A stretch of DNA of 8,037 bases from a virus (lineage: Duplodnaviria > Heunggongvirae > Uroviricota > Caudoviricetes): IMG/VR virus record IMGVR_UViG_2531839237_000019. One strand, given 5' to 3'. The position numbers and the translations under genes were made by a program. Positions within the stretch are counted from its first letter, which is position 1, and every line of letters begins with the position of its first letter. The notes beneath the pieces were generated by a model, which searched no databases, was not told the origin of the DNA, and saw only the letters and a list, made by a program, of their open reading frames with translations. Positions 3,236-4,247 of the stretch are shown piece after piece.

Positions 3236-4247
3236 AAAGGTGAAAACCGGCAGTTCATCCAGTAAGTCAGTATTGACCTGGCTTGCTGATATGTGCGGTG
3301 CCGATTTGTGTGCATACCCGTCTGTATCTGCACTGGCAGAAGTAACGGAACTGAACAAAAAGACTGTGCAGGACAGCTTACGACACCTGATGGAGATTGG
3401 GTTAATTGTTGATACCGGTGAGAGAAAAGGCAGAACAAAGCAAATTGTGGTGTACCGACTTATCGGTGTAGAAGAAAGTGTTGCCGAGCCTGAATACACC
3501 CAAAAACGGGAGTCTTTAAAGGTGGGTAAAATTGGTGCTGTTAATAAAAACAGTACCGAAAATGGTTATGTTTCAGCACAAAACAGACCCAAAAACAGAA
3601 CTCTTAGCTGCATGGAAAATAACCAAAGACACCCAAATTTTCCATCAAAGACACCCAAAAACGGATCACGGAACCCAAAGGAACCCAAAGATCTAAACCC
3701 CACACATAACGCACGCGAGAGTGCTCCGACCAGTGAGCAGGAAGTTTTGTCGTTACAGGCAGCCCCCCCTGTATTCCTGTATGGCCTGAGCGAACCCATC
3801 GGAAAATTCCCGATGAGCGATAGCTGGTATCCGTCACGGGATTTTCGACGACGGGCTGCGTTGTGGGGGATGGCTTTGCCGGAGACAGAATTTACACCTG
3901 CTGAACTTGCCGCCTTCCGGGACTACTGGGCAGCGGAGGGGAAAGTGTTTACGCAGATTCAGTGGGAGCAGAAATTCGCCCGTCACGTAAATCACGTCAG
4001 GGCGCAGGTTAAACCAGTCAGCAAAGGGGTAAACCATGCAGCAGCACCAGGTGGCACCGCATCACGGGCAGTTCAGGAAATTCGGGCAGCACGTGAACAG
4101 TGGGAACGTGAAAACGGATTTATCAGCAACGGAAACGGCCTGGAAGCTGTGGGAACTTATGGGGGAGGTGTATTCGAACCGCTGGACCCAGAAGAACGGG
4201 GCTGCGCCGTCGAAGCTCTGGATTGCTCAGATTGGCGCGATGACTGA
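3207..4247 (+). CDS. Replication initiator (O-like) with N-terminal winged-helix domain and C-terminal DnaT-like ssDNA-binding domain
   Basis: The ORF track starts at TTG 3132; ATG 3207 (MSIDALRWAKK...) with an upstream AGGGGGG is the more likely start. The C-terminal segment GKFPMSDSWYPSRDFRRRAALWGMALPETEFTPAELAAFRDYWAAEGKVFTQIQWEQKFAR aligns with the DnaT C-terminal domain ([29 protein letters not shown]...[20 protein letters not shown]). The N-terminus looks like a DNA-binding wHTH, and a low-complexity N/K/P-rich linker lies between. Confidence 0.75.
   Translation: MSIDALRWAKKVKTGSSSSKSVLTWLADMCGADLCAYPSVSALAEVTELNKKTVQDSLRHLMEIGLIVDTGERKGRTKQIVVYRLIGVEESVAEPEYTQKRESLKVGKIGAVNKNSTENGYVSAQNRPKNRTLSCMENNQRHPNFPSKTPKNGSRNPKEPKDLNPTHNARESAPTSEQEVLSLQAAPPVFLYGLSEPIGKFPMSDSWYPSRDFRRRAALWGMALPETEFTPAELAAFRDYWAAEGKVFTQIQWEQKFARHVNHVRAQVKPVSKGVNHAAAPGGTASRAVQEIRAAREQWERENGFISNGNGLEAVGTYGGGVFEPLDPEERGCAVEALDCSDWRDD
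3584..3690 (+). repeat. Iteron-like direct repeats (ACCCAAA core) inside the initiator gene; candidate replication origin
   Basis: CAAAGACACCCAAA occurs perfectly twice (3624-3637 and 3646-3659). GAACCCAAAG is tandemly duplicated (3671-3680 and 3681-3690), and CAGACCCAAAAACAG lies at 3584-3598. Spacings are near multiples of 10-11 bp, and an A-rich stretch precedes the repeats. Confidence 0.45.

Follow-up and report, generated by a model that had tools for sequence, protein, structure and literature searches.

A replication initiator gene in a caudoviral prophage carries, between the coding regions of its two domains, an array of direct repeats that probably forms the iteron part of the prophage's replication origin. 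The DNA analysed, called the window here, is a stretch of 8,037 nucleotides (nt) from IMG/VR record IMGVR_UViG_2531839237_000019. It represents the region for immunity and replication in a lambdoid prophage and shares 98.8% identity with the PPompW prophages found in Shiga-toxin-producing E. coli. The array extends over ~3493-3689, corresponding to amino acids 96-161 of the 346 in the initiator, and lies in the part of the gene that codes for the interdomain linker. A preliminary description of the window had proposed a candidate prophage origin in this gene, and our computational tests support the proposal, with origin function assigned from comparisons of sequence. The arrangement is most likely an origin within the initiator gene of the lambda type, a sound conclusion that will not surprise a specialist, at a locus where public records mark no origin.

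Five copies of an ACCCAAA core had originally been listed within 3584-3690. All five are present (3587, 3631, 3653, 3673 and 3683), but a sixth exact copy, at 3498, had been omitted. The six lie on the + strand and are the only ones in the window, where ~1.5 would be expected by chance; none of 200 dinucleotide shuffles reached six, and under uniform placement the chance of finding all six within 192 nt (3498-3689) is ~5e-8. We also located the perfect 14-bp direct repeat (CAAAGACACCCAAA, at 3624 and 3646) and the tandem 10-bp duplication (GGAACCCAAA twice, at 3670-3689, called by Tandem Repeats Finder, TRF) that had been described. The repeats are thus real. Its actual unit, however, is not the 7-bp core but ~17-21 bp, AACAG(T/A)CCCAAAAACGG, and two of the five copies first listed are half-sites of this unit. 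Counted in this way, the array consists of four strong copies, one weak copy and two half-sites (Table 1). The right end of the interval first proposed holds, but the array starts ~90 nt upstream of its left end, and the copies at 3498 and 3549-3569 had been left out.

Upon closer examination, the individual copies differ in how well they are preserved. Iteron 1 holds a dyad (CCCAAAAACGGG) and also scores on the - strand (3519-3499) with a model trained on distant loci. In the other copies of the window, checked against a family core in which CC (model positions 7-8) and GG (15-16) flank AAAAAC, only three of five arm positions of such a dyad are kept. Iteron 2 was invisible to a search for the core because ACCGAAA stands in place of ACCCAAA; it is nonetheless the best match (17.4 bits) of the model trained solely on distant loci. 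The remnant between these two iterons aligns with its orthologue, a CCCAAAAACGG copy that has stayed intact in relatives from Edwardsiella and Plesiomonas. The weak iteron is copy one of the perfect 14-bp repeat, and its segment CCCAATTTT is kept across enteric relatives, while the CCCAAAAACGG of iteron 4 is invariant in 8/8 aligned enteric relatives. In other genera, the sequence orthologous to the tandem half-sites is GGAATCTACCAAGGAACC(A)TAAA. Core spacings within the interval first proposed are 44, 22, 20 and 10 nt, or 4.2, 2.1, 1.9 and 0.95 turns of the helix; the roughly helical phasing noted earlier therefore stands there, but we rejected it as a rule for the family, in which spacings of 17 and 46 nt are common.

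The repeat is a property of the whole initiator family. We assembled 54 loci with the same N-terminal domain (N-domain), namely the window, four annotated phages and 49 genomes of different species. These loci carry the same word at the same position and span alpha-, beta- and gamma-proteobacteria, among whose temperate phages the iteron word AACAGTCCCAAAAACGG and its presumed winged-helix reader are almost unchanged. The linker regions yielded a 17-21-nt consensus, AACAGTCCCAAAAACGGAA, in which AA (positions 0-1), CC (7-8) and A (10) are nearly invariant (97-99%) and GG (15-16) is found in 81% of sites. Applied to the + strand of the window, this family model returns the four strong copies at 19-22 bits and the one at 3626 at 11.5, with no further site of at least 8 bits. 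Related loci totalling 185 kb gave 266 + strand matches of at least 12 bits, of which 255 fall between -20 and +330 nt of the end of the N-domain; on the - strand 35 matches were recorded, and 31 of 32 among the matches listed fall in the same region behind the N-domain.

Because the family model had been built on these very linkers, we trained an independent model. It drew solely on loci whose N-domain identity is below 60% (from Acinetobacter, Burkholderia and sphingomonads, among others), and its seed was the 8-mer most frequent in those loci. In the window this distant-locus model picks out 3546, 3645 and 3579 on the + strand and the palindromic iteron 1 on the - strand, and no further site of at least 6 bits in the 8 kb. 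Across a complete 44-kb PPompW prophage, all family-model matches of at least 9 bits lie in the initiator linker, and the distant-locus model adds one weak match outside it.

The protein encoded around the array has the lambda-like domain layout that had been proposed for it, as judged from Pfam, AlphaFold and Foldseek: a winged-helix N-domain (amino acids 1-89), a linker predicted to be disordered (90-194, where the AlphaFold predicted local distance difference test score, pLDDT, is below 50) and a DnaT-like C-terminal domain (C-domain; ~195-268) of the single-stranded DNA (ssDNA)-binding type. The Pfam domain positions and the pLDDT profile also place the repeats in the linker-coding part, as first stated. 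In lambda, the annotated record has the four iterons inside O, at amino acids 117-145 of 299, again in agreement with the preliminary description. The C-domain is identified by Pfam DnaT at amino acids 201-267 (E=9e-17, 61 bits against a cut-off of 25), by its match to DnaT chains in the PDB (6aep, E=1.7e-19) and by Foldseek (DnaT, template modelling (TM) score 0.91, root-mean-square deviation 1.0), and together with the PHROG 1032 match of the N-domain it places the protein among the initiators with DnaT-like C-domains ('primosomal protein' / PHROG 1032). The N-domain is predicted to fold as a winged helix of the order H-H-H-H-beta-beta with a conserved DTGERKGRTKQ in the wing. It belongs to PHROG 1032, 'replication initiation protein' (E=3e-38), contains an HTH_36-like region at amino acids 36-67 (E=3e-4, below the Pfam family cut-off), and has winged-helix DNA binders, including plasmid Rep initiators, as weak Foldseek neighbours (E about 0.02). 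In PHROGs 678 and 345 ('replication initiation O-like') it hits the profile regions that the N-domain of lambda O also hits, and a published HHpred analysis assigns HTH_36 to the lambda O N-terminus (PMC5509034).

If the array is read by the N-domain, the two should be found together regardless of what else the module contains. The same N-domain with iterons occurs in four different C-domain/partner combinations: with a DnaT-like C-domain and a lambda-P-like loader in the window and phiV10, with a Phg_2220_C C-domain and a P-like loader in Edwardsiella phage EPP-1, with an unassigned C-domain and a DUF6475 gene in Bcep176, and with a DnaB-type helicase in AP22. The array likewise tracks the N-domain across phages that differ in their upstream genes. 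To the N-domain of the window, those of EPP-1 and Klebsiella are ~75-80% identical. By contrast, YdaU of the Rac prophage, whose C-half and following P-like gene share 92% DNA identity with the window, carries DUF1376 as its N-domain and lacks such an array. The 92% identity to Rac-SA53 runs from query position 588 (~3687 in the window), and in a pairwise alignment identity begins with TAAACCCCACACATA at ~3693, 4 nt past the last repeat. The array was therefore inherited with the N-domain and not with the C-domain, which is the behaviour expected of an origin-specificity module. The Rac ydaU linker (locus L002, Rac-SA53, 2920-2954) has repeats of its own just upstream of the start of homology to the window, the palindromic words GGTGTTCAAACA and GGTGTTTGAACA spaced 23 nt apart; in Rac (oriJ), this pair may correspond to the iterons.

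Of 5426 complete E. coli genomes, 908 carry the N-domain and array with an identity of at least 95%, strains of O157:H7, O145:H28 and O111:H8 among them; RefSeq labels the protein 'DnaT-like ssDNA-binding domain-containing protein', and no origin feature is annotated. Among the E. coli copies the N-domain and array differ by 0.1-2%, except in the bin dominated by a minority allele of the window at 3597, and the array bin 3627-3734 by 0.3-1.0%, as compared with 1-12% in the C-half. At 3597 most other copies have G, restoring CCCAAAAACGG, where the window has the minority A that weakens iteron 3; at 3563 many alleles have C, giving ACCGAAAACGG, nearer the consensus, and the allele of the window weakens iteron 2. 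The 10-bp unit GGAACCCAAA varies from one to three copies among E. coli prophages. Three copies (locus L025) shift the frame and cut the initiator to 170 amino acids (...PKEPKGTQRSKPHT). The same kind of 170-amino-acid truncation, ending KPHT, is found in protein cluster P0004 (37 member sequences), and a +1 shift in the A-run just past the array in cluster P0002 (167 amino acids, 14 members). These frameshifted alleles, which were revealed by a protein search with the N-domain alone that returned mostly truncated proteins, retain the N-domain and the array and lose the DnaT domain.

Some complete E. coli genomes hold up to four copies of the N-domain-plus-array module, and three copies are on plasmids. 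With several modules in one genome, co-resident prophages may share one origin specificity. It is conceivable, if improbable, that the initiator of an induced prophage could act in trans on co-resident or cryptic prophages and fire their origins, and that the slippage-prone 10-bp repeat serves as a frameshift switch by which the initiator is turned off while a trans-responsive origin is kept. Such firing would amplify neighbouring cargo, for example paa/adfO, genes for type III secretion system (T3SS) effectors, or a Shiga toxin (Stx) phage inserted next to PPompW.

The arrangement of the region suggests how an origin in this position could work. The cro/dicC-like and CII-like/YdaT-like genes belong to the same rightward operon and lie upstream of the initiator, in the gene order of lambda, and transcription from the repressor-controlled promoter would pass through the array. 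Upon derepression, rightward transcription would lead to production of the initiator. Its winged-helix N-domain would then bind the four strong iterons, each built as a C-rich arm, an A-tract and a G-rich arm, and possibly the weaker copies too, giving a nucleoprotein complex resembling the lambda 'O-some' on A-tract-bent DNA. As DNA nearby opens, the DnaT-like C-domain would hold ssDNA or contact the lambda-P-like loader, and the loader would deliver host DnaB. We infer the main elements of this scheme: binding of the N-domain to the repeats, firing of the origin at the array, and the place of unwinding. As for the last, our guess is either the internal stretch 3520-3640, described below, or the segment 3669-3712, which is strongly strand-asymmetric with 79% A+C on the top strand.

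Several observations weigh against an origin at this place, most of them concerning DNA opening and the relation to lambda. In a nearest-neighbour stability scan no lambda-style AT-rich unwinding tract adjoins the array, and 3700-3760 is ~40% A+T; in lambda, 74% A+T extends over the 46 nt directly past iteron 4. Within the gene, stability is lowest at 3520-3640 (62-68% A+T, only ~1.6 standard deviations above the window mean), inside the array, where the richest A+T stretch, 3540-3580 (68%), lies as well. The family average shows a modest A+T excess (+0.18) 20-40 nt past the last iteron, contributed mainly by Acinetobacter loci. No DnaA box lies within 2.7 kb of the array, the copies in the window have decayed in part (the A at 3597, the remnant at 3519), and in the searchable literature we found no experiment on binding or replication by initiators of this family. 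The iterons of lambda, for their part, obtain no match from the family model, and a profile comparison of the N-domain with lambda O by hhalign was not significant (probability 2.6%). Phage_rep_O, which lambda O itself matches at E=6e-36, is also not among the Pfam matches of the window protein at E <= 0.01 (DnaT, HTH_36, RP-C and HVO_A0114). Because of these last two results we rejected membership in the lambda O family (Pfam Phage_rep_O), the N-domains being linked only transitively, through the PHROG matches. Rather, the initiator appears to be a distant relative that works like lambda O.

Could the repeats bind the initiator for another purpose, such as autoregulation, copy control, handcuffing or exclusion of related phages, with unwinding and helicase loading elsewhere in the prophage? 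The lack of a clear AT-rich unwinding element flanking the array and the presence of up to four modules in one E. coli genome would fit such a role, and secondary roles of plasmid and lambda iterons are established. Cloned lambda ori iterons are inhibitory (PMC3349717). However, the 44-kb prophage has no second cluster of the motif, and the position of the array matches that of the proven lambda origin. Since the same sites serve both roles in lambda, a regulatory role is more an addition to an origin than an alternative to it, and we consider it unlikely as the sole explanation. Still less probable is that the sites serve another protein (the CII-like/YdaT-like protein or a host factor) or arose as neutral slippage products in a tolerant linker. 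The variation of the 10-bp tandem unit from one to three copies is a signature of slippage, but such behaviour is confined to the last 20 nt, and the array follows the N-domain even where the upstream genes differ. Conservation of the word from alpha- to gamma-proteobacteria rules out neutral slippage as the explanation.

A different objection is that the DNA repetition might be a mere consequence of selection for a repetitive, low-complexity linker peptide with P-K-N-G motifs; the preliminary description had itself raised the possibility that repeats in related phages follow only from a conserved repetitive peptide. The copies of phiV10, Scandinavium and Enterobacter ECC-219 are indeed all in one frame and encode PKNG-like peptides, and P150-K151-N152-G153 is invariant in the alignment of enteric homologues. 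In the window, however, identical DNA words occur in all three frames: the six exact cores are read in frames 0, 2, 1, 2, 1 and 2 and are translated TQ, PK or (H/N)P(N/K), and the two copies of the perfect 14-mer, which are in different frames because they are 22 nt apart, read QRHPN and SKTPK. Among related loci with at least three sites, 43 of 46 have them in more than one frame, and in 23 they occupy all three. Orthologous copies can differ too, with iteron 4 reading TPKNG in the window and DPQKRD in EPP-1, and the experimentally defined iterons of lambda lie in frames 0, 2, 2 and 1. Copies in all three frames, together with orthologous copies in different frames, argue for selection on the DNA and not on the peptide, and the predicted disorder of the linker also speaks against the latter. 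Selection on the peptide is thereby largely refuted, and we give it next to no credence. The N/K/P-rich linker peptide, which the preliminary description had rightly traced to the repeats, is a by-product of coding through the iterons.

Around the array, the window has the organization of a dicA/dicC/dicB-type immunity region followed by replication genes (Table 1); downstream of the loader, the order is a DUF1627 gene, paa/adfO and hok/sok. The CII-like/YdaT-like open reading frame (ORF) overlaps the start of the initiator by 29 nt (3207-3235). For the P-like protein, a long alternative ORF in another frame begins at 4036 and overlaps the last 212 nt of the initiator (4036-4247); public annotation starts the gene at 4279. 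The adhesin-associated gene paa/adfO (6329-7087, SBP_bac_11 fold family) follows the stretch with the highest A+T content in the window (6077-6343, 72-85% A+T) and looks like a separately acquired cargo gene within the early-right operon. Downstream of the repressor gene lies a 23-nt tandem repeat, AAGCTTCTTGTGTAGAAAAACCT (1.9 copies, 1889-1932), and the intergenic region between repressor and cro (2396-2472) contains several CTTAGG...CTAAG palindromes; both are probably operator sites. A promoter and terminator scan of 1800-4900 gave nothing above chance.

Table 1. Elements of the repeat array, the junction behind it, and genes of the surrounding region (window coordinates; bit scores of iterons refer to the family model)
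Feature	Position	Strand	Evidence and remarks
Iteron 1, AATACACCCAAAAACGGGAGT	3493-3513	+	20.3 bits; conserved across enteric genera; outside the interval first proposed
Decayed iteron remnant, AAGGTGGGTAAAATTGGTGCT	3519-3539	+	<6 bits
Iteron 2, AACAGTACCGAAAATGGTTAT	3549-3569	+	19.0 bits; degenerate ACCGAAA core
Iteron 3, AACAGACCCAAAAACAGAACT	3582-3602	+	22.3 bits
Weak or partial iteron, AAGACACCCAAATTTTCCATC	3626-3646	+	11.5 bits; left half matching, right half diverged
Iteron 4, AAGACACCCAAAAACGGATCA	3648-3668	+	21.7 bits; best-conserved copy; copy two of the 14-bp perfect repeat
Tandem half-sites, GGAACCCAAA x2	3670-3689	+	TRF; no family-model match
Mosaic junction	3690-3693	n/a	Homology to Rac ydaU-ydaV starts here and continues through the P-like gene
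DicF antisense RNA gene	109-158	-	Rfam RF00039, 49.4 bits against a gathering score of 48; fits a dicA/dicC/dicB-type context
dicA/cI-like repressor gene	1989-2396	-	
cro/dicC-like gene	2473-2700	+	Pfam P22_Cro
CII-like/YdaT-like gene	2684-3235	+	Pfam YdaT_toxin; PHROG 163 CII-like
Replication initiator gene, 346 amino acids	3207-4247	+	PPompW annotation 'phage replication protein'
Lambda-P-like helicase loader gene	4279-4701	+	Pfam Phage_lambda_P E=1e-16; PHROG 109 'P-like helicase loader' E=6e-50; PPompW annotation
sok antitoxin RNA	7276-7425		Rfam 104 bits
hok/gef-type toxin ORF	7366-7578	+	Pfam HOK_GEF E=2e-21

A survey of Stx phages describes replication regions unlike that of lambda, including pairs of YdaT-like and HTH_36 genes beside cI (types Eru8 and Eru11), and its authors state that nothing is known on the replication of these phages (PMC8951638). 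In literature on oriJ, YdaU, iterons with DnaT, and HTH_36 we found no description of an origin for this initiator family. The iteron consensus and the mapped candidate origin offer a testable handle on prophage induction and replication, and the motif a simple tool for annotating origins in this initiator family across Proteobacteria.

That an origin can lie inside the initiator gene has been a textbook principle since lambda and is not itself new here. For lambda, the placement within O is classical (PMC7466680). The window shares with it an iteron array inside the initiator gene, between a DNA-binding N-domain and a C-domain, with copies in several reading frames built from a C-rich arm, an A-tract and a G-rich arm (lambda ATCCCTCAAAACGAGGGA, window GTCCCAAAAACGG(GAC)), and with a loader gene of the lambda P family next to it. 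The operon layout of repressor, cro, cII-like gene, initiator and loader is the same, and the N-domains are distantly related through the matches to PHROGs 678 and 345. The differences lie in the C-domain, which is DnaT-like in the window and Phg_2220_C in lambda O (PMC5509034); in the iterons, which use another word and are irregularly spaced over ~195 nt in the window but tightly packed in ~85 nt in lambda; and in the adjacent 40-nt AT-rich tract, which the window does not have.

With the Rac YdaU/YdaV (oriJ) module the window shares the C-half and P-like gene discussed above, at 92% DNA identity, as well as an operon context of a dicA/racR-like repressor, a cro-like gene and a ydaT-like gene. 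Rac differs in having a DUF1376 N-domain in place of the HTH_36-type winged helix-turn-helix and, in its linker, the GGTGTTCAAACA/GGTGTTTGAACA pair in place of a CCCAAA array. Because both the N-domains and the linker repeats differ, the two modules probably differ in origin specificity.

In plasmids, iterons are usually located outside the rep gene, with DnaA boxes and an AT-rich region beside them. Plasmid origins that use a winged-helix Rep (staphylococcal RepA, PDB 4pql/5kbj; the R6K, F and pPS10 classes) resemble the window in pairing such an initiator with direct repeats of ~17-22 bp, to which the initiator of the window is predicted to bind. They differ from it in that the window has no DnaA box and holds its array inside the initiator gene. 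An identical two-gene architecture is that of DopC/DopE, a domesticated lambda O/P-like pair of Cellvibrionales and Oceanospirillales (Brezellec et al. 2017, PMC5509034), in which a protein with an HTH_36 N-domain and a DnaT C-domain is likewise followed by a lambda-P-like protein. Its authors report neither iteron-like sequences nor an origin in dopC (PMC5509034). By contrast, the window keeps a full array, and it thus provides a phage-side reference for the domesticated pair.

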